In this document: in pieces, positions 12,287-23,954 of the stretch
How the letters are laid out: each line of letters starts with the position of its first letter
Position numbering within the stretch: the stretch's first letter is position 1
DNA from: a virus
Lineage: Duplodnaviria; Caudoviricetes
Length of the DNA stretch: 31,780 bases
Virus record (IMG/VR): IMGVR_UViG_3300017777_000502
Span: 1 to 31,780 of that record
Reading direction: 5' to 3' (one strand)
Position numbers and translations under genes: made by a program
The notes under the pieces: generated by a model
Told to the model about the DNA's origin: nothing
The model's input: the letters and a program-made list of their open reading frames with translations, nothing else
The model's database searches: none

Positions 12287-12946
12287 TTAAAACAATTCTT
12301 GCTCAACTTGAATGCACAAATCTGGTCCATCGTCATACCGCTGCTGATCGCATTTGGGATACAACTTCAGCACTGGGTAATTCAGCTTTTCTTGCATCAT
12401 TCGGCGCTGTCGCTTGTCGCCAACAAACTGAAAATAACGGTGCTTGTCCATGGGCTTGACCATTTCAATGCCATTCTCTTTGGCCCATCGTGTTGGGTCT
12501 GTTATGCCTCTGTCCCTCAAAGTCATTGGATGCGTGCGCTTGCCATCAACGATATAGGCTTTGTCATGGCTCTTGGTGGCTCCCGTATACAGCCAGTTAG
12601 TGGCCTGATAAATGATGCCGCAATGGTTTTGCTCCATGTCGGCATAACTAATCACGGCGCATGGCTTTGGCTCCAACAACTTCAAGCTGTTGGCCACCAA
12701 AAAACTTGAAGCGTTTTTTGTCTTGGACTGCACCACCACACGGGCCAATTCATACAGCCTGAATTCCCTGTCCTTGAATGCGTGCTTTTGAATTGGCGGG
12801 GATGGCTGGCCATACACTGCAACACCTGTAATTTGGCCATCCTCCTCAAGCCCAAAGCCAGCCCAAAAAATAGAGGCTCTGCGGCTGTAGTGTTTGGTCA
12901 GAACAAATTGCTCTGCCACCTGTTTTGAAATTGGTATGACGTTCAT
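12287..12946 (-). CDS. mom: Mom-family adenine modification enzyme (GNAT fold)
   Basis: Motifs HYS, GVAVYGQP, ELAR, SFLVANSLK and VISYAD....HCGIIYQATNWLYTG are characteristic of phage Mu Mom homologues. Confidence 0.8.
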   Translation of the reverse strand: MNVIPISKQVAEQFVLTKHYSRRASIFWAGFGLEEDGQITGVAVYGQPSPPIQKHAFKDREFRLYELARVVVQSKTKNASSFLVANSLKLLEPKPCAVISYADMEQNHCGIIYQATNWLYTGATKSHDKAYIVDGKRTHPMTLRDRGITDPTRWAKENGIEMVKPMDKHRYFQFVGDKRQRRMMQEKLNYPVLKLYPKCDQQRYDDGPDLCIQVEQELF

Positions 12947-12957
12947 TTGCAGCACCT

Positions 12958-13143
12958 TTAAACGCTCTTGATTGCTTCTTTGCATTTGGCAAGCCACTCA
13001 GGTGCATAACCAGCATCAAAGTCCACATCGCCAGTCAGCAGCCAATACGCAGACGCTATGTCGTTTGTGCCAAATTCTTGAACACGGCTGCGGCCTTCAT
13101 AACCATTCCAGTTGCCCCAGATGTTTTGCTTTATTTTTCGCAT
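12958..13143 (-). CDS. Hypothetical protein, 61 aa
   Basis: Fills the gap in the leftward early chain; purine-rich RBS region. Confidence 0.65.
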   Translation of the reverse strand: MRKIKQNIWGNWNGYEGRSRVQEFGTNDIASAYWLLTGDVDFDAGYAPEWLAKCKEAIKSV

Positions 13144-14380: not shown

Positions 14381-15598
14381 ATGAACCTGTACCCGCATCA
14401 GGAAACTGCCAAACAGTTTCTGCTCACCCAAAAGAGGGCCATTCTGGCCGACCAGCCGCGAGTCGGCAAGACACTGCCAACAGCAGCCGCAGCCCTCGAA
14501 AACCTCCCCGCCTTGATCGTCTGCCCAGCCATTGCAAAAACGGTCTGGGAAGCCGCATTCTGCAAGCTGTCCAACGCCTCTGTGCGTGTTGTCAACGGTA
14601 AGAATGACGCCATGAAGACCACCAACCATCAGGTGGTCATCATCAACTACGACCTGCTGCAATACTTCAACAATGCGGGTTACCGCACGCTGGTGCTGGA
14701 TGAGTGCCATCGCATCAAGAACCCCTTGGCAAAACGCACCGCATCCGCATCCCTACTGATGAAGCAGATTGACCGTGTGTATGCCTTATCTGGCACGCCT
14801 ATCCCCAACAGGCCCGTAGAACTGTGGCCCATCTTGCACGGCCTGGGTATTTACCGTGGCGGCTGGTACGACTTTGCGGCCAGGTACGCCAAGATGTGGA
14901 AATCGCCATGGGGCTTAGATGTCTCAGGCTCCAGCAACATCCCCGAACTCAAGGCACTGATGAAGCCCCATGTGCTGCGGCGCAAAAAAGAGGATGTGTT
15001 CAAAGACTATCGTGATCCACAGGTGTCACTCATCACCTTTGATCTGCCCAATGACAAGCGTGAGCAGCAATTCGATGCTGATGCCTTGGCGGCCAACCCC
15101 AACGCCTTGCTGGCCTTTGAAGGCTTGGCAGAGATCATGAAAGAAGCGGGTATGCGCAAAGTCAATTTAGCAGCCGAATTCATTGATGACCTGCTGAACT
15201 CTGGTGAACCCGTGGTGGTCTTTGCGCACCACAAGGATGTGGTGGCCGAACTAGTCAAAGAACTCAAGGCCCACAAGCCTGTGACGGTGGTCGGCGACAC
15301 GCCAAGAGCGCAGCGCGACAAGGCCATTGAAGCCTTTCAAGCTGGCAAGACCAAATGCATCATCGGCAACATTGCGGCTATGAGCGAAGGTGTGGACCTG
15401 AGTGCAGCCGACACGATCGTCTTTGTCGAGTGCACTTGGTCAACGTCTGCACTGGAGCAGGCCAGCAGCCGGGTCGAGAACATCACCAAGAACGGCATCC
15501 AGCCCGTCATCTACATCTTGACCATCAGGGCATCCCTTGACCACACCGTGCTGGCCAAGGTGCTGAAGAAGTTGAATGTCGTTAACCAAATCATTTGA
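14381..15598 (+). CDS. SNF2-family (SF2) helicase
   Basis: [10 protein letters not shown] (Walker A), LVLDECH (Walker B), [15 protein letters not shown] and QASSR. GAGGA RBS before ATG 14381. Confidence 0.9.
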
Positions 15599-15606
15599 GG
15601 TCATAT

Positions 15607-16272
15607 ATGAAAGTAGAAATTGGAGACGCAACGCTGTACCTAGGCGACTGCATGGACATTTTGCCTACGCTGCAAAAGGTGGATGCGGTAATTACTGACC
15701 CGCCTTATGGTCTTGCTGAAAAATTGCAGGGCGGTACTTGGGGAAAAGCATTTGAAGGCGCTTACAAGGACTGGGATGCGGCGGCTCCCGTTGAGCTTGT
15801 TCAAGCGGCTTTACGGCTATCAGATAAAGCCATTGTTTGGGGTGGAAATTACTTTCAATTCCCGCCTTCACGATGCTGGCTGACATGGATTAAGCGGGAT
15901 GCCGTTCGAACAATGGCTGGATGCGAGCTTGCGTGGACAAACTTTGATGCAAACGCCAAGTTTTTTGATTGGACGATTGCCGCCACAAATGCAGAGCGTG
16001 TTGCACATCCGACACAAAAGCCGCTTGCCTTGATGAAGTGGTGCATCGATCAAGCTGGTAACCCTGAAACCATCCTAGACCCATTTATGGGCAGCGGGAC
16101 AACTGGCGTGGCTGCTGTGCAAATGGGCCGCAAGTTCATAGGCATTGAGCGCGAACAAAAATACTTTGAAATTGCTTGTCAACGAATTGAGAAAGCATAT
16201 GCGCAACAGTCTTTATTCGACAGGTCCAACGGCATAACCGCCAGCGACTTCAAACAGCAACCACTTATTTAA
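15607..16272 (+). CDS. DNA amino-methyltransferase (N4-C/N6-A, beta class)
   Basis: Motif IV TDPPY precedes HPTQKP and motif [11 protein letters not shown]; GIERE. Confidence 0.92.
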
Positions 16273-17388: not shown

Positions 17389-17436
17389 GTGTCAATTTTA
17401 CATCCAGCAACAGCCAGAGGCATCAACCATGGCTAA
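17389..17436 (+). CDS. Putative 15-aa leader peptide overlapping the primase start
   Basis: TTAGGAG SD five nt before GTG 17389; reads (M)SILHPATARGINHG. Its stop at 17434-36 lies just past ATG 17429. Confidence 0.35.
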   Translation: MSILHPATARGINHG

Positions 17437-19597
17437 GAAGACATTTGGATTCATTGCCCAAAACTTGGCCGATCTTGGCTACGAGCCAGTCCCCATAATC
17501 CGAGGCGAGAAACGGCCAGCCGTGGACAAGTGGCAGTCTGGTGGGTGGGAGGTGCACACCCAGCAGTTCGAAACCAACTACACCGGGCTGCTGACCCGAT
17601 TCAACCCCGGCGTGGACATTGATGTGTCAGACGAGGAACTGGTCCAAGCCATTCGCGCCATCGTCTTTGATGTCGCCGGGTGCCATGAGATGCCGCCACC
17701 CCGGCGCATTGGCAACGCGCCCCGAGAGTTGCTGCTGTTTCGCACTGAGGAAGAGTTCGCCAAGGTCAGCACCGCTGCCTACGTTCTCAAGACCGACAAG
17801 GCAGATGCCAATGGCAAGGTCAAAGGCTCCAAGGTCGAGATCCTTGCCAGTGGCCAGCAGTTTGTGGCCTACGCCATCCACCCCGACACCAAGCTGCCCT
17901 ACAACTGGAACGGTGGTGGTGAGCCGTTGGCCATGGAGCGCAGTAAGCTGGTGACGCTGGACGAGGCCCAGGCCAAGGAGATCGTGGCCAGGTGCGAGGT
18001 GCTGCTGTCGCTGCACGGGCAGCTTGTCGAGCGTAGATCCATCACCTCAGACTCAGGTGGAACGCTTGCGGACAGAATCCCGAACGAGCGCCAAGATGCC
18101 GATGACCCAATCCTGGCTCTATCCGCAGTTGGCGCCATGCCCAACCCCAACCTGCCGTTTGACGATTGGCTGCGCGTGCTGTACGCCACTAAGGGCGCAC
18201 TCAAGGAAGAAGGCCGCAACGCCTTTATGCGCTGGTCGGCCAAGTCCATCAAGCACGACCAAGCCTTTGCTGACAAGGAATGGCAAAAGGCCCGGCCCAC
18301 TATGCTGGGTGCTGGCTCACTCATATGGATGGCCAAGAAGTTGGGCTGGGCACCCGTGATGGCCATTCAGGTCGCGCAGCCTGTGGCCAACAGCGTGGTG
18401 GTGGACGAGGATGGCGAGGTGGCATCCCTTGTTTGGCCACACATGTCAGGCGGCAAAGCCCCCAAGCCGCTGAACACGCTGGAAAATTTTGCCGCCCTGT
18501 CCCGGTTTCTTGGCATCGAGTACCGAATGAACATGATGACGGGCGAGGAGGTGGTACGCATTCCCGGTATGCAAGTGGCCGAGGGGTCGGAGGCCAACAG
18601 CGCGGTCACCTACATGATGAGTCAGGCTCACCTGATGAGCCTGCCGTCTAGCTTGGTGCCAGAGTTCATGTCCATGATTTGCGCCCAGAACCCGTTTCAC
18701 CCCGCCCAGCAGTGGGTGGATTCCAAGCCTTGGGATGGCGTGAGCCGTTTGCAGGCATGGATGGACACCATCACAGCCGTGGACCAGCCACTGAAAGAGC
18801 AGATGATGCGCAGGTGGGCCATCAGCGCCATGGCCGCCCTGTATAAGCCGGGAGGTGTCAGCGCCCATGGCGTGCTGACCCTGCTGGGCGACCAAGGCAT
18901 TGGCAAGACCAGTTGGTTCTTGTCGTTGGTGCCTAGGGGTTTGGGCTTTGCCAAGGATGGGATGATCTTGCGGCCTGACAGCCCAGACAGCGTGCGCCAA
19001 GTCACCGCCAACTGGCTGGTCGAGCTTGGCGAGTTGGATGCCACCTTTCGCAAGTCGGACATTGCCGCCCTCAAAGCCTTCATCACCCAGGCCAGTGACA
19101 CCTACCGACTGCCCTACGCCAGAAAGAACACGGTCAACCCAAGACGGACGGTTTTCTTTGCCTCGGTCAATGACTCAAAGTTTTTGAGCGACAACACGGG
19201 CAACCGCAGGTACTGGACTATCGACTGCCTTGAGATTGACTACCGCCACCAGATCGACATGCAGCAGCTTTGGGCCGAGGTCAAGACGTTCTACCAAGCA
19301 GGCGAGGATTGGTATCTGGATGAGGCCGAGTTGGCCAGCCTGAACGAGTCGAACGAGCAGTTCATGACGCTGGACCCGATTGCCGAGAGGCTTGAGACTC
19401 GGCTGGATTGGGATGCGCCAAGCATTGATTGGCACTGGCGTACAGCCACCGAAATTGCCATGGCCATCGGGCTGACCAACCCGAGCAGGTCGGATGTGAC
19501 CCGCATTGCGTCCTATTTGCAAAAGAGTAAAGGGTGCAACCATAAGAGATCGCACGGCCTGACCAAGACCCTGGTTGCACCCTATGTGTTTGTCTGA
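17429..19597 (+). CDS. Primase-polymerase / PriCT-2 / VirE-family helicase fusion
   Basis: N-terminal bifunctional PrimPol motifs (PI..GEKRP, GVDIDV, HPDT..PY.W). PriCT-2 (FDDWLRV...FMRWSAKS.KH). C-terminal P-loop GDQGIGKT, VELGELD, RLPY and FLSDNTGNRRYW. Confidence 0.88.
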   Translation: MAKKTFGFIAQNLADLGYEPVPIIRGEKRPAVDKWQSGGWEVHTQQFETNYTGLLTRFNPGVDIDVSDEELVQAIRAIVFDVAGCHEMPPPRRIGNAPRELLLFRTEEEFAKVSTAAYVLKTDKADANGKVKGSKVEILASGQQFVAYAIHPDTKLPYNWNGGGEPLAMERSKLVTLDEAQAKEIVARCEVLLSLHGQLVERRSITSDSGGTLADRIPNERQDADDPILALSAVGAMPNPNLPFDDWLRVLYATKGALKEEGRNAFMRWSAKSIKHDQAFADKEWQKARPTMLGAGSLIWMAKKLGWAPVMAIQVAQPVANSVVVDEDGEVASLVWPHMSGGKAPKPLNTLENFAALSRFLGIEYRMNMMTGEEVVRIPGMQVAEGSEANSAVTYMMSQAHLMSLPSSLVPEFMSMICAQNPFHPAQQWVDSKPWDGVSRLQAWMDTITAVDQPLKEQMMRRWAISAMAALYKPGGVSAHGVLTLLGDQGIGKTSWFLSLVPRGLGFAKDGMILRPDSPDSVRQVTANWLVELGELDATFRKSDIAALKAFITQASDTYRLPYARKNTVNPRRTVFFASVNDSKFLSDNTGNRRYWTIDCLEIDYRHQIDMQQLWAEVKTFYQAGEDWYLDEAELASLNESNEQFMTLDPIAERLETRLDWDAPSIDWHWRTATEIAMAIGLTNPSRSDVTRIASYLQKSKGCNHKRSHGLTKTLVAPYVFV

Positions 19598-19795
19598 GGT
19601 TGCACCAAGTTGGCAGGTTGCACCGAGGTTGCACCTGCCGCAAACCCGCATGGTTATTAGCTTTGTGCAACCTGGTGCAACCTGGTGTAACTACTTTACT
19701 TAAAATGGATATTAGTGGAATATGGCAAATAAACACATAGAAAACGCAAATAGAAAGGTTAAGCAATTGGTTGCACCCGTTGCACCCGTTGCACC
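19533..19795. repeat. Iteron cluster (GGTTGCACC), putative phage replication origin
   Basis: Direct copies at 19573, 19598, 19616, 19627, 19769, 19778 and 19787. Inverted copies at 19533, about 19664, 19674 and 19684 (degenerate). An AT-rich tract lies at about 19690-19765. Confidence 0.8.
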
Positions 19796-20102
19796 CGATG
19801 ACTTTTTGGACGATGACCGGGTGACCTGCGACACCTGCCAACATCGAGGCGACCAGCCAGCCGATGAGTTTGTGGATTTGGACAAGGCAAGGCAACTCAG
19901 GACCATGGGCAAACGATTGGGTATGCCTGGCGACAAGTTTGAGCAAAAGGGCAACTGGCTCAGAATTTCATGGATTGAAGCCTGCTGCCATGCGACTGGC
20001 TTTTCGCCACAACCCAGCCAACTCAAGCATCGATGCCATTTGTATTCCAAGGCAACTGCACTGCCTTCATCGGTAGAATCCGATGCATGGTGGCTCGACT
20101 AA
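19722..20102 (+). CDS. Hypothetical Cys-containing protein (possible Zn binding)
   Basis: CDTC...CC...HRC. The N-terminal VAPVAPVAP is the translation of iterons. Confidence 0.6.
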   Translation: MANKHIENANRKVKQLVAPVAPVAPDDFLDDDRVTCDTCQHRGDQPADEFVDLDKARQLRTMGKRLGMPGDKFEQKGNWLRISWIEACCHATGFSPQPSQLKHRCHLYSKATALPSSVESDAWWLD

Positions 20103-20473
20103 GAAAAAGCATTGAACACACTGAACAGGTCAAACTGGTGCAGCGGGTCAGAGCCTTCTACCCTGATGTCATCATTGCTGCCATACCGAATGGGGGCAAC
20201 AGAACGGCCTCAGAGCGTGTCAGACTGCATCAGGAGGGGGTACTTGCTGGAATGCCTGATCTGTGCGTCCTTGAGGCATCTGGTGGTCACCATGGGCTGT
20301 TTGTTGAGATGAAGACAGCAACAGGGCAACAGAGCAAAGAGCAGAAGGCTTTGCAGTTGCAATTAAACAACAATGGGTATCTGTGCGCTGTCGCACGTTC
20401 AGCCCAAGAGGGTTTTGAAATTATTGAGGAGTATTTGAATGGCGAAAGCAAACACGCTGGCCGAGTGGGCTGA
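20087..20473 (+). CDS. VRR-NUC endonuclease
   Basis: EHTEQ, IPNGG.R, EGVLAGMPDL, LFVEMKT..G..S.EQ. Confidence 0.88.
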   Translation: MVARLRKSIEHTEQVKLVQRVRAFYPDVIIAAIPNGGNRTASERVRLHQEGVLAGMPDLCVLEASGGHHGLFVEMKTATGQQSKEQKALQLQLNNNGYLCAVARSAQEGFEIIEEYLNGESKHAGRVG

Positions 20474-20939
20474 CAACATTGTTGAAAGGCAGATTACCCT
20501 CAAAGACAAGGCAGCCATCGCACGCAAGGAAGCCTCAGACGTCAACAAGAAGATCCACCAGTTCGGTGGCGAGGTTGCCATTGTTGACAGACTGTCCCAA
20601 GGGGAAACCGTTTTGGGTGTGGCAAGGACGCTGGGTATAAGTCACACCGCTTTTTACGATTGGGTGGATAGAGGGGGCGAGGCACGCACTGCCGCTCTTG
20701 CGCGTGCACGCACGCGAGGTGGTCAGAGTTTAGCCGAGCAAACGCTGGAGATCGCCGACAGCGCGACCCCGCAAGAGGCGCAGGTGGCCAAGCTGCGGGT
20801 CGATACAAGGCGCTGGCTGGCCAGCAAGATGAACGAGGAATACAGCGACAAGCAGCAGCCTTTGGTCAACATCGATCTGGGCAGCATGGCACTCGATGCG
20901 CTGCGCAAGCGCAGCGTGGATATGCATACCGATAACTGA
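20439..20939 (+). CDS. terS: Terminase small subunit
   Basis: HTH (GETVLGVARTLGISHTAFYDW), then EIAD...VAKLRVDTRRWLASKM, the Sf6-like TerS pattern. Confidence 0.82.
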   Translation: MAKANTLAEWADNIVERQITLKDKAAIARKEASDVNKKIHQFGGEVAIVDRLSQGETVLGVARTLGISHTAFYDWVDRGGEARTAALARARTRGGQSLAEQTLEIADSATPQEAQVAKLRVDTRRWLASKMNEEYSDKQQPLVNIDLGSMALDALRKRSVDMHTDN

Positions 20940-20943
20940 CGGT

Positions 20944-20971
20944 ACTTCGCACAACGTCCATTATGTTAAGT
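20944..20971 (+). other. dif-like XerC/XerD recombination site
   Basis: ACTTCGCACAA-CGTCCA-TTATGTTAAGT has the 11-6-11 layout. The right arm matches the XerD arm TTATGTTAAAT at 10/11 and the left arm matches the E. coli XerC arm GGTGCGCATAA at 7/11. Confidence 0.8.
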
Positions 20972-20981
20972 CGATACAGAG

Positions 20982-21070
20982 TTATCCACAGATTAATGGA
21001 TACGTTTGGTTTAACTTGCAAGTTATCCACAGGAATCTGTGGATAACTGTGGACAAACCCCTGTGGACAA
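20982..21070. promoter_or_regulatory. Cluster of five DnaA boxes
   Basis: TTATCCACA at 20982-90 and 21023-31; TGTGGATAA at 21038-46; TGTGGACAA (1 mismatch) at 21048-56 and 21062-70. Confidence 0.88.
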
Positions 21071-21232
21071 GCCGATGCCGCGCCAGCCTGGGGCCGTGGC
21101 CGCGACCCCCCCGGTGGCCGCCTTGGCGGGGGCGGCTGCTGCGGTACCCCACACCCATCCCTGACAACCCTGAAAAATTTTTTTTAAGTTTGTCAAAAAT
21201 GTAACCAAGGGCACTTAAAGCAAATAAAGCAC

Positions 21233-22535: not shown

Positions 22536-22544
22536 TTGACGCAT

Positions 22545-23954
22545 ATGGCAAAAGAAAATGTGTTTCAGCAGTGGGTGGAGAGGTATCAGCCTGACCCGGT
22601 GCTGTTTGTGCGGGAGGTGCTGGGGGTAGATCCGGACCCGTGGCAGGTGAAGTTTCTCCAGGCGATTGCCCGTGGGGACAGGAAGATATCAGTGCGCAGC
22701 GGCCACGGGGTGGGGAAATCTACGGCATCAAGCTGGGCCATGCTGTGGTACTTTATGACCAGATCACCCGTGAAGGTGGTGGTGACCGCGCCGACCAGCA
22801 GCCAGCTTTATGACGCGATGTTTGCGGAACTGAAGCGGTGGATCAATGCGATGCCTGCCCCATTGCAGGGGTTGCTGACTGTGAAGCAAGAGCGCATTGA
22901 GTTCAACGCAGCGCCGACTGAGATGTTCATCTCAGCCAGGACATCACGGGCCGAGCAGCCCGAGGCTTTGCAGGGCATTCACTCTGAGTATGTGATGCTG
23001 GTGGCCGATGAGGCCAGCGGTGTGCCAGAGCAGGTGTTCGAGGCGGCGGCGGGCAGTATGTCGGGCCACAACGCTGTGACGCTGCTGCTGGGCAACCCGG
23101 TGAGGTCATCAGGGTTCTTCTATGACACCCACACCCGGCTGGCTGGGGAGTGGACCACGTTTCAGGTGGCGTGTACCGACTCGCCAAGAGTCAGTGACGA
23201 GTATGTGAAGGAGATGGCGCAGCGGTACGGTGAGGACAGCAACGTCTACCGCATTCGCGTGATTGGGGAATTCCCCAAGGGTGATGACGACACCATCATT
23301 GGCATGGACCTGCTGGAAAGTGCGGTGCATCGGGATGTGGCCCCGAGCCAGTCGGCACCCATGGTGTGGGGGTTGGATGTGGCGCGGTTTGGCAGTGACA
23401 GGTCGGCGCTGTGCAAGCGCCAAGGCAACGTGATGACCGAGGCCATCAGGACTTGGAAGAATCTGGACCTGATGCAACTGACGGGTGCTGTGGTGGCTGA
23501 GTACAACGTGCTGCCGTCAAGCCAGCAGCCCAAAGAGATTTTGGTGGACAGCATCGGTCTTGGGGCTGGGGTGGTGGACAGGCTTAGAGAGCTTGGCCTG
23601 CCAGCTAGGGGCATCAATGTGTCCGAAAGCCCAGCCATGGGCGGCACCTATCGCAACCTGAAAGCTGAACTTTGGTACAGGGCCAAGGCGTGGCTGGAGG
23701 CGAGAGACTGCAAGCTGGCCAAGGACGAGGTGCTGATTTCCGAATTGGCCACGGTGCGGTACACCTTCACCAGTAATGGGAAAATTGCCATTGAAGGCAA
23801 AGACGAGATCAGGAAGAGGGGATTGCCCAGCCCTGACAAGGCTGATGCTTTTGTCTTGACGTTTGCAAGCGATGCGATTGCCGGGATGTACGGGTCAGCA
23901 GGCAGCAACAAGTGGAGCCAGCCGCTGCGCCGAAACCTGTCGAGGGTTGCATAA
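22545..23954 (+). CDS. terL: Terminase large subunit
   Basis: Walker A RSGHGVGKS, Walker B LVADEASG, motif III LGNP, and nuclease residues GLDVARFGSD, VDSIG and SPDKADA. Confidence 0.95.
   Translation: MAKENVFQQWVERYQPDPVLFVREVLGVDPDPWQVKFLQAIARGDRKISVRSGHGVGKSTASSWAMLWYFMTRSPVKVVVTAPTSSQLYDAMFAELKRWINAMPAPLQGLLTVKQERIEFNAAPTEMFISARTSRAEQPEALQGIHSEYVMLVADEASGVPEQVFEAAAGSMSGHNAVTLLLGNPVRSSGFFYDTHTRLAGEWTTFQVACTDSPRVSDEYVKEMAQRYGEDSNVYRIRVIGEFPKGDDDTIIGMDLLESAVHRDVAPSQSAPMVWGLDVARFGSDRSALCKRQGNVMTEAIRTWKNLDLMQLTGAVVAEYNVLPSSQQPKEILVDSIGLGAGVVDRLRELGLPARGINVSESPAMGGTYRNLKAELWYRAKAWLEARDCKLAKDEVLISELATVRYTFTSNGKIAIEGKDEIRKRGLPSPDKADAFVLTFASDAIAGMYGSAGSNKWSQPLRRNLSRVA

Follow-up and report, generated by a model that had tools for sequence, protein, structure and literature searches.

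Phages that exploit host Xer recombinases have been described among integrating filamentous, tailless and ssDNA types. Mobile elements of the IMEX kind (CTXphi, VGJphi, TLCphi, GGI and the enterogokushoviruses) carry a dif-like site and have no integrase. In phage P1, the Cre/loxP system provides a recombination site near the packaging start, which is present twice in the terminally redundant virion DNA and closes the circle; our literature search confirmed Cre of P1 only for its role in dimer resolution. Where the virion DNA has short direct terminal repeats, circularisation is mostly attributed, as an assumption, to homologous recombination.

On plasmids, the sites cer (ColE1) and psi (pSC101) are described as a core for host XerCD with an altered centre and neighbouring DNA for accessory proteins (PMC5357621). 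In phage T5, DnaA boxes in both orientations occur in the 10-kb terminal repeat and the DNA is injected in two steps; the role of DnaA there is itself a proposal (Davison, bioRxiv 10.1101/866236).

The locus described here is found in a 31,780-nucleotide stretch of an uncultured tailed phage (the window), where a dif-like site and five DnaA boxes form a cassette directly behind the gene for the small terminase subunit. It shares the dif-like site and the lack of an integrase with the IMEX elements, but the phage is a tailed dsDNA virus, no integrated copy was found, homology to the host centre on the XerC side is seen in only part of the sites, and DnaA boxes are present. Like cer and psi, it combines a core of host XerCD type and an altered centre with neighbouring DNA of accessory character. 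Unlike them, the motifs identified beside it are DnaA boxes and not sites of PepA, ArgR or ArcA, the layouts vary, and it belongs to a tailed phage and probably to a genome end. The P1 system may be likened to it, as the site lies near the probable packaging start, is likely to be present twice in virion DNA and would close the circle; in contrast to P1, the recombinase would be host XerCD, or a serine resolvase in a sister group, the repeat is likely short and fixed, and there is no sign of a partition system. With T5 it shares boxes in both orientations, and would differ in the length of the repeat and the mode of injection. A literature search conducted outside most subscription papers and bioRxiv supplements returned no paper on dif in the terminal repeat of a tailed phage, or on dif combined with DnaA boxes on a phage.

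The Cassette and Its Genome

The window represents about 32 of about 36 kb of a podovirus-like genome with an SU10-type portal, capsid and adaptor, and 34 relatives that are 97-100% complete were therefore also checked. It encodes a PriCT_2/VapE primase-helicase (17429..19597, plus strand), an SNF2 helicase, a DUF2800 nuclease, an Enc34-type SSB, a VRR-NUC protein and, downstream of the cassette, the large terminase subunit terL (22536..23954, plus strand), which is 53% identical to terL of phage phiM5. An array of iteron-like GGTTGCACC repeats without a DnaA box follows directly after the primase-helicase gene (19598..19796) and is likely the origin of the phage itself. Small as the genome is, the window also encodes both a Mom-like DNA modification gene (12287-12997, minus strand) and an N6/N4 methylase (15595-16272, plus strand).

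The cassette begins 4 nt past the stop codon of terS, a small terminase subunit gene of Sf6-like type (20439..20939, plus strand; PF20901, phrog_1482). The dif-like site (20944-20971) is 28 bp long and reads ACTTCGCACAA CGTCCA TTATGTTAAGT, with two 11-bp arms around a 6-bp centre, and its XerD arm is of the proteobacterial type. The XerC-side arm (20944..20954, plus strand) has C at position 9, as in Comamonadaceae, a letter found in all 144 box-linked sites. The centre CGTCCA (20955..20960, plus strand) is phage-specific: 21 centre variants occur among the 144 sites, and none of them is the host TGTATA. The XerD-side arm TTATGTTAAGT (20961..20971, plus strand) is identical to the host-type arm.

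Ten nucleotides past the XerD arm lies the first of three perfect DnaA boxes, TTATCCACA (20982..20990, plus strand). The second (21023..21031, plus strand) is paired with the third as its inverted partner (21038..21046, minus strand), and two further boxes of the form TTGTCCACA have one mismatch each (21048..21056 and 21062..21070, both minus strand), the former of which varies among relatives. The cassette thus has several high-affinity 9-mers, as a DnaA-dependent origin does.

Several tests bear on the reality of this signal. The only three perfect DnaA boxes of the window are all in the cassette, together with five of the seven window matches with at most one mismatch. Under a looser pattern the number of boxes in the whole window is not unusual (4 against 3.1 expected). 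It is their clustering that stands out, with five within 90 nt, compared to a largest cluster of three in 300 Markov-1 resamples; the dif pattern occurred in none of these 300 resamples. The cassette stretch is no assembly artefact, since contigs from public runs span it with 0 (X1), 3 (X2) and 3 (X8) differences, the best of which may be the source of the window itself. A sequence-only reading of the window had placed a dif-like site 4 nt past the terS stop, with five DnaA boxes starting 10 nt further on, in a window with no apparent integrase or partition gene. The positions proved exact and far above chance, and no match to integrase, partition or DNA polymerase families was found among the 33 window ORFs scanned.

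An RNA gene search returned two sub-threshold eukaryotic matches only, and promoter and terminator scans were at chance level. With five periods tried, the boxes showed weak helical phasing on the minus strand (P about 0.04, n=11) and no significant phasing on the plus strand.

Conservation and Layout among Relatives

The sequence-only reading would have fallen if the two elements did not occur together in related phages, and they do. Among loci found in IMG/VR with terS alone (the best 80 of 149, 65-100% amino acid identity), the dif-like site, a box at +10 and at least three boxes are present in 79 of 80; in the remaining one, the contig ends just after dif. Although the XerD arm belonged to other search patterns, it is present in all 80 of these terS-retrieved loci. 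The same co-occurrence is seen in 37 of 47 informative terL relatives. When the gap was left free, the +10 spacing was found in 86 of 120 matches, and every other gap at most five times.

The cassette is not confined to one position. Some phages have it in forward orientation behind terS and others in the inverted one; it also follows a terS that comes with a different terL, and in further cases it precedes terS-like genes. Inversion relative to terS leaves the +10 spacing unchanged, as does its placement in a carrier with a P22-type portal and a terL identity of only 30% (G425). A scan with the site only covered 120 of about 920 matching IMG/VR stretches. Of these, 63 have the +10 box, and another 35 show one of five alternative box layouts. 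Boxes are absent from 21, most of which have poor left arms, and one lies at a contig edge. In a wider set of 202 unique site contexts, part of which came from loci found with a box in the search pattern, 188 have at least two boxes, in at least six layouts. This suggests that dif plus boxes is the constant, with exact spacing being specific to the lineage. As at cer and psi, conserved accessory DNA therefore stands beside the core.

The site itself varies within narrow bounds. There is one site per genome and the 11-6-11 geometry is strictly kept. Across the 140 cassettes that have a box at +10, the centre ends in CCA (112), TCA (27) or CTA (1), the last two letters being CA in 139, while the first triplet takes 11 forms, of which the host TGT accounts for 27/140 and CGT is that of the window. 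Position 13 matches the host in 91% of cassettes. Parts of this stretch of the window occur in 20 public runs from 14 studies.

Related arrangements were seen elsewhere. In two loci (L176 and L180), the cassette lies upstream of a 404-409-aa ORF (a ParB-domain methylase by eye) that is followed by a terS-like ORF, with no terS before it. Other viral contigs (L278, L173, L269, L695, L717, L739 and L643) combine a dif-like site with DnaA boxes in varied layouts; their centres often end in TCA, and L278 adjoins tRNA-like genes (by eye). On a 155-kb viral contig (L650:170-450), a canonical dif is accompanied by five DnaA boxes spaced about 11 nt apart, with two more dif-like arms within 100 nt. 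Of 88 viral sites with canonical arms and a non-host centre, 7 have at least two boxes, and a C-run/G-run block is present in L695 as well; the dif-plus-boxes design thus recurs at a low rate in other host groups.

The Likely Host

The closest chromosomal counterpart is the dif/XerCD/FtsK system of Comamonadaceae, with which the cassette shares the 28-bp 11-6-11 build, an identical XerD arm and the C at position 9. It differs in lying on a phage, in a centre that is never TGTATA, in a position 10 that is mostly A, in its DnaA boxes and in having only one GGGNAGGG motif. A chromosomal dif has the host centre, lies at the chromosome terminus and is KOPS-guided; the cassette has none of these features. 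The single GGGNAGGG is the only KOPS motif in the window, and no KOPS pattern was found across 10 genomes.

Published dif tables place the arms more closely. In Table 1 and supplementary rows of PMC2731167, and in 30 of the 108 betaproteobacterial rows plus 8 named ones of PMC3025954, position 9 is C in Rhodoferax, Polaromonas, Delftia, Acidovorax, Verminephrobacter and Variovorax, and T in Polynucleobacter, Methylotenera, Bordetella and Neisseria. This C is not a unique mark, because the rows also give it for Leptothrix, Methylibium, Aromatoleum and Shewanella oneidensis. When metagenomes were scanned for arms of this kind around the host centre, the loci obtained (120 listed of about 280) were mostly ACTT(C/T)ATACGA TGTATA TTATGT(T/A)AAGT. 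At two of four host-type loci tested, the adjacent TatD clusters at 90% with Limnohabitans proteins. The consensus arms of the phage group match the Rhodoferax/Limnohabitans-type dif, whereas the window's own arm taken alone is ambiguous: its site is identical to the Limnohabitans type at 22 of 28 positions and to the Thiobacillus dif at 23 of 28 (by eye). From the match of the arms and the clustering of TatD, the host is likely a Limnohabitans/Rhodoferax-type bacterium. A search in a class sample of 401 genomes without taxon labels gave 0 matches and is uninformative. Three host-type loci (L360, L413 and L424) have the dif beside an ankyrin gene and tatD, similar to the ankyrin neighbour listed for Rhodoferax.

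The phage and host sites are nevertheless distinct. Position 10 of the XerC arm is A in 123 of 144 phage sites, compared to G in 119 of 120 host sites, and the host centre is found in none of the 144 box-linked sites. Only 1 of 112 host-type difs has any DnaA box within -130..+170, and the cassette is therefore no chromosomal segment taken over by the phage.

The Neighbouring Element and the Probable Genome End

Beyond the boxes lies a C-run/G-run element (21100..21149, plus strand), a candidate packaging or terminus signal that aligns with the end of the phiM5 repeat and with phages that carry a serine resolvase. On its far side the sequence has an A5T8 tract (21173..21185, plus strand). In 132 of 144 cases, a C-run/G-run block followed by an A/T tract is reached less than 200 nt outward from the site, on its XerD side in 106 and on its XerC side in 26. 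The combination was seen at none of 1,992 positions drawn at random from these loci and at none of 59 host difs. As a hairpin, the element did not rise above shuffled sequences in the window (z +1.19), phiM5 or MW202879, and this idea was dropped.

phiM5 is the closest cultured relative by terL (53%), and the terS proteins do not align by BLASTP. Its annotated 357-bp direct terminal repeat starts inside its terS and ends about 12 nt past a similar C-run/G-run block; no dif was seen in its whole record with a beta/gamma-type pattern. Because the annotated repeat ends at such an element, the cassette likely lies in the short terminal repeat of its phage. By analogy with this single record, and for a dif group known here from contigs alone, the right end of the repeat is predicted near 21140, so that the cassette would be included if the repeat is longer than about 200 bp. 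The 3' part of terS is then also likely to be inside the repeat. Contig ends near the site are spread over the conserved terS, with no sharp peak. No peak of starts or ends was listed for the public contigs that span the stretch, whose depth is in any case no measure of copy number.

These results modify the sequence-only reading, in which the site and the boxes behind terS form one unit that recruits host XerCD and DnaA. The unit is conserved, and its parts have the look of XerC/XerD and DnaA sites; what it appears to be linked to is a probable genome end, not terS as such.

Exchange with a Serine Resolvase

MW202879, the closest relative in GenBank (terL 75%), lacks both dif and boxes behind terS. 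Instead, a serine resolvase gene lies just past the neighbouring element. The same alternation is found among other relatives. From a set of 80 terL loci, 33 of which were uninformative, the 47 relatives that show the end of terS comprise 37 with the cassette, 10 with the resolvase, none with both and none with neither. By an unbiased count, 0 of 127 informative loci have neither dif nor resolvase. In a separate set, dif was found in 0 of 54 resolvase loci. The resolvase family PF00239 is present in 4 of 4 resolvase genomes and 0 of 30 dif genomes, and with PF00589 included the latter count is still 0 of 30; a phage-coded recombinase is thus found only in the resolvase sister group. On a terL tree of 130 rows, from which loci with neither dif nor resolvase, or with a terL below 55% identity or 400 aa, were omitted, the two states require only 2 changes, which points to few independent events of exchange. 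The two groups may also differ in host.

The resolvase loci have features of their own. The serine recombinase (PF00239) of L161:966-1634 and L301-L354 is about 220 aa long, is encoded just past the C-run/G-run element and lies behind a near-consensus sigma-70 promoter (by eye). A palindrome of the GGGTTAACCC type follows terS in resolvase phages at the place where the sister group has dif, and it is also present in some dif phages (L255, L275).

Such an exchange is what one might expect of a plain multimer-resolution site, at which XerCD would resolve dimers of circular phage DNA in a theta phase or in an unpartitioned carrier state, the place beside the packaging signal being incidental or regulatory. 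Plasmid prophages of Bacillus are described as employing recombinases of either type (PMC8026635), and a single site per genome with a non-host centre, as on plasmid sites, fits equally well. However, no ParA was found in 34 genomes, and this explanation would leave unexplained both the position of the site less than 200 nt from a terminus-like element across layouts and the presence of dif inside the terminal repeat of phage Gotham (see below). We consider this explanation unlikely.

Integration, Origin Function and Plasmid Maintenance

Xer-mediated integration and a plasmid-like or carrier state with host-initiated replication had also been proposed from the sequence for the cassette. Integration, an origin at the boxes and a stable plasmid state all lacked support. 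The tyrosine recombinase family PF00589 and the ParA family PF13614 were each found in 0 of the 34 near-complete relatives, while all 14 of 14 controls were positive; the lack of ParA speaks against the stable plasmid state. Comparison with plasmids gave matches of the dif part to Acinetobacter pdif-like sites and of the box part to large replicons, and none covers both among 30 listed of 611 matches.

Integration could proceed without a phage integrase if the site were an attP of the VGJphi type, recombining with host dif through XerC alone and leaving the junction to be resolved by replication. The cassette combines host-like arms with a centre that diverges on its XerD side, as described for VGJphi (PMC5357621), and gokushoviruses, also without an integrase, integrate in this way. 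In the phage group, position 13 is mostly host-like and the first triplet of the centre is at times TGT. Yet this triplet varies widely and is CGT in the window, and no match to a repressor family was found in the ORFs scanned. No integrated copy came to light either: a search of 185,579 GTDB genomes for the XerD arm and box in the +10 layout gave 15 matches, none of them near a window-like gene, and such a gene was absent from all 120 host-centre metagenome loci (120 of about 280), counts that are limited by sampling and binning. The last triplet of the host centre was found in 0 of 119 dif-only viral matches. With the host centre absent from the box-linked sites and no junction in either collection, we hold integration by this route to be very unlikely.

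The boxes could also be a DnaA-dependent origin that dif merely adjoins. The window has no DNA polymerase family match, and by BLAST the box part resembles the origins of chromids. In the window, however, the iteron array follows the rep gene 1.2 kb from the cassette, and the boxes are therefore probably not the origin. In two relatives (G402 and G403), a different rep gene is followed by DnaA boxes of its own, and yet the dif-linked boxes persist as a separate set, which indicates that the latter go with dif and not with the origin. Resolvase phages, in turn, lack dif-linked boxes, and many of them keep origin boxes. An origin function of the cassette is accordingly most improbable.

Replication modules in this group are exchangeable. 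Iteron-like arrays (window:19598-19796; L161:2950-3400) swap with the rep gene, and a RepA-type module carries 2-3 perfect DnaA boxes of its own, while the PriCT_2/VapE module of the window has none. In gut Bacilli/Mollicutes-like genomes (L289, L290, L292-L295, L300), a word resembling the XerD arm precedes a DnaA box by 10 nt, and in L295 a dnaA-like gene (by eye) lies downstream of the two; the L289-L300 set is possibly a chance overlap with degenerate boxes.

Dif Sites and DnaA Boxes in Other Tailed Phages

No cultured-phage record covers the cassette. A search of cultured phages returned mostly small tailless phages, and a match in 720R6 turned out to be host DNA. No convincing dif was found in Venkman, HTVC106P and MW202462 (parts of each record), or in phiM5, MW202711, MW202496 and C72C1 (whole records). 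The Methylophilales phage Venkman has three perfect DnaA boxes around its record ends (L619:7615; L622:52, 365), just upstream of a terS-like gene.

A dif query, on the other hand, matched 139 phage records, mostly of rV5-like coliphages. One of these, the E. coli phage Gotham (MT682716), has the E. coli dif arms around the centre TGGGTA, and its two copies (L616:170-197 and L617:2737-2764) lie inside an annotated 459-bp repeat at both ends of the genome. The record does not annotate it as dif, and our literature search found no description of it. Gotham shares with the cassette phages the host dif arms, a private centre and, for Gotham by annotation, a terminal repeat; it differs in being a 137-kb Vequintavirus without DnaA boxes. 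The pairing of dif and boxes is therefore not universal, since the Gotham repeat has dif without boxes, while that of BF23 has boxes without a convincing dif.

A further possibility is a non-catalytic docking pad, where XerC, XerD and DnaA would bind the ends without exchanging strands. Bound in this way, they could protect the ends against exonucleases, anchor them at the membrane or septum, or set the pace of ejection or packaging. DnaA boxes are present in T5-like terminal repeats, and a role of DnaA at the T5 injection stop has been proposed (bioRxiv 10.1101/866236). The many forms of the centre and the departure of the XerC arm from the host at position 10 in most sites would fit such a pad. 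Against it stand the strict geometry, the nearly invariant CA at the end of the centre and the fact that the alternative state is a gene for a catalytic recombinase, and we rate this explanation as quite improbable.

A Possible Route to Circular Phage Genomes

The cassette is conserved, with host-type arms, a non-host centre, one site per genome and a constant neighbour; sister phages have a resolvase in its stead, and neither an integrase nor ParA was found. We propose, with about even confidence, that host XerCD joins the two genome ends into a circle, with DnaA as an accessory factor. In this mechanism, virion DNA would end just past the C-run/G-run element, and the injected DNA would have the site twice in direct repeat. 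Host XerC and XerD would bind the arms and recombine the two end copies, giving rise to a circular genome. The private centre would allow phage sites to recombine with each other and limit exchange with host dif. DnaA on the boxes might pair or activate the two sites away from the septal FtsK, as PepA does with ArgR or ArcA at cer and psi. Circular dimers might also be resolved at this site later on. Among the options raised by the sequence-only reading, DnaA-gated recombination beside the packaging start would come closest to this mechanism; a joining of ends inside a terminal repeat was not one of them.

Some observations count against the joining of ends at this site. phiM5 has ends of this kind and no dif was seen in it, so such ends can work without the site. 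The repeat is borrowed from this one relative, with a terL identity of 53% and a non-aligning terS. The boxes lie mostly on the XerD side, whereas the accessory DNA of cer and psi lies on the XerC side, and their helical phasing is weak.

A broader proposal is tentative and, in our view, less likely than not. Many lytic tailed phages may place a host dif with a private centre in their terminal repeats, so that XerCD circularises the genome on entry. In the present group, DnaA would switch Xer on without FtsK. This would be a third route to Xer activation, one that senses the replication state of the host and can be swapped for a phage-coded serine recombinase.

The arms of dif provide a host label for an uncultured phage group that is widespread in freshwater data; the site pattern is found in about 920 IMG/VR stretches. 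With the rV5-like phages, E. coli K-12 already offers a system in which the core idea can be examined. If the host-Xer route is true, the exploitation of Xer would no longer be confined to integrating phages of the filamentous and tailless kinds but would include tailed phages that appear to be lytic, and DnaA would gain a role in site-specific recombination.
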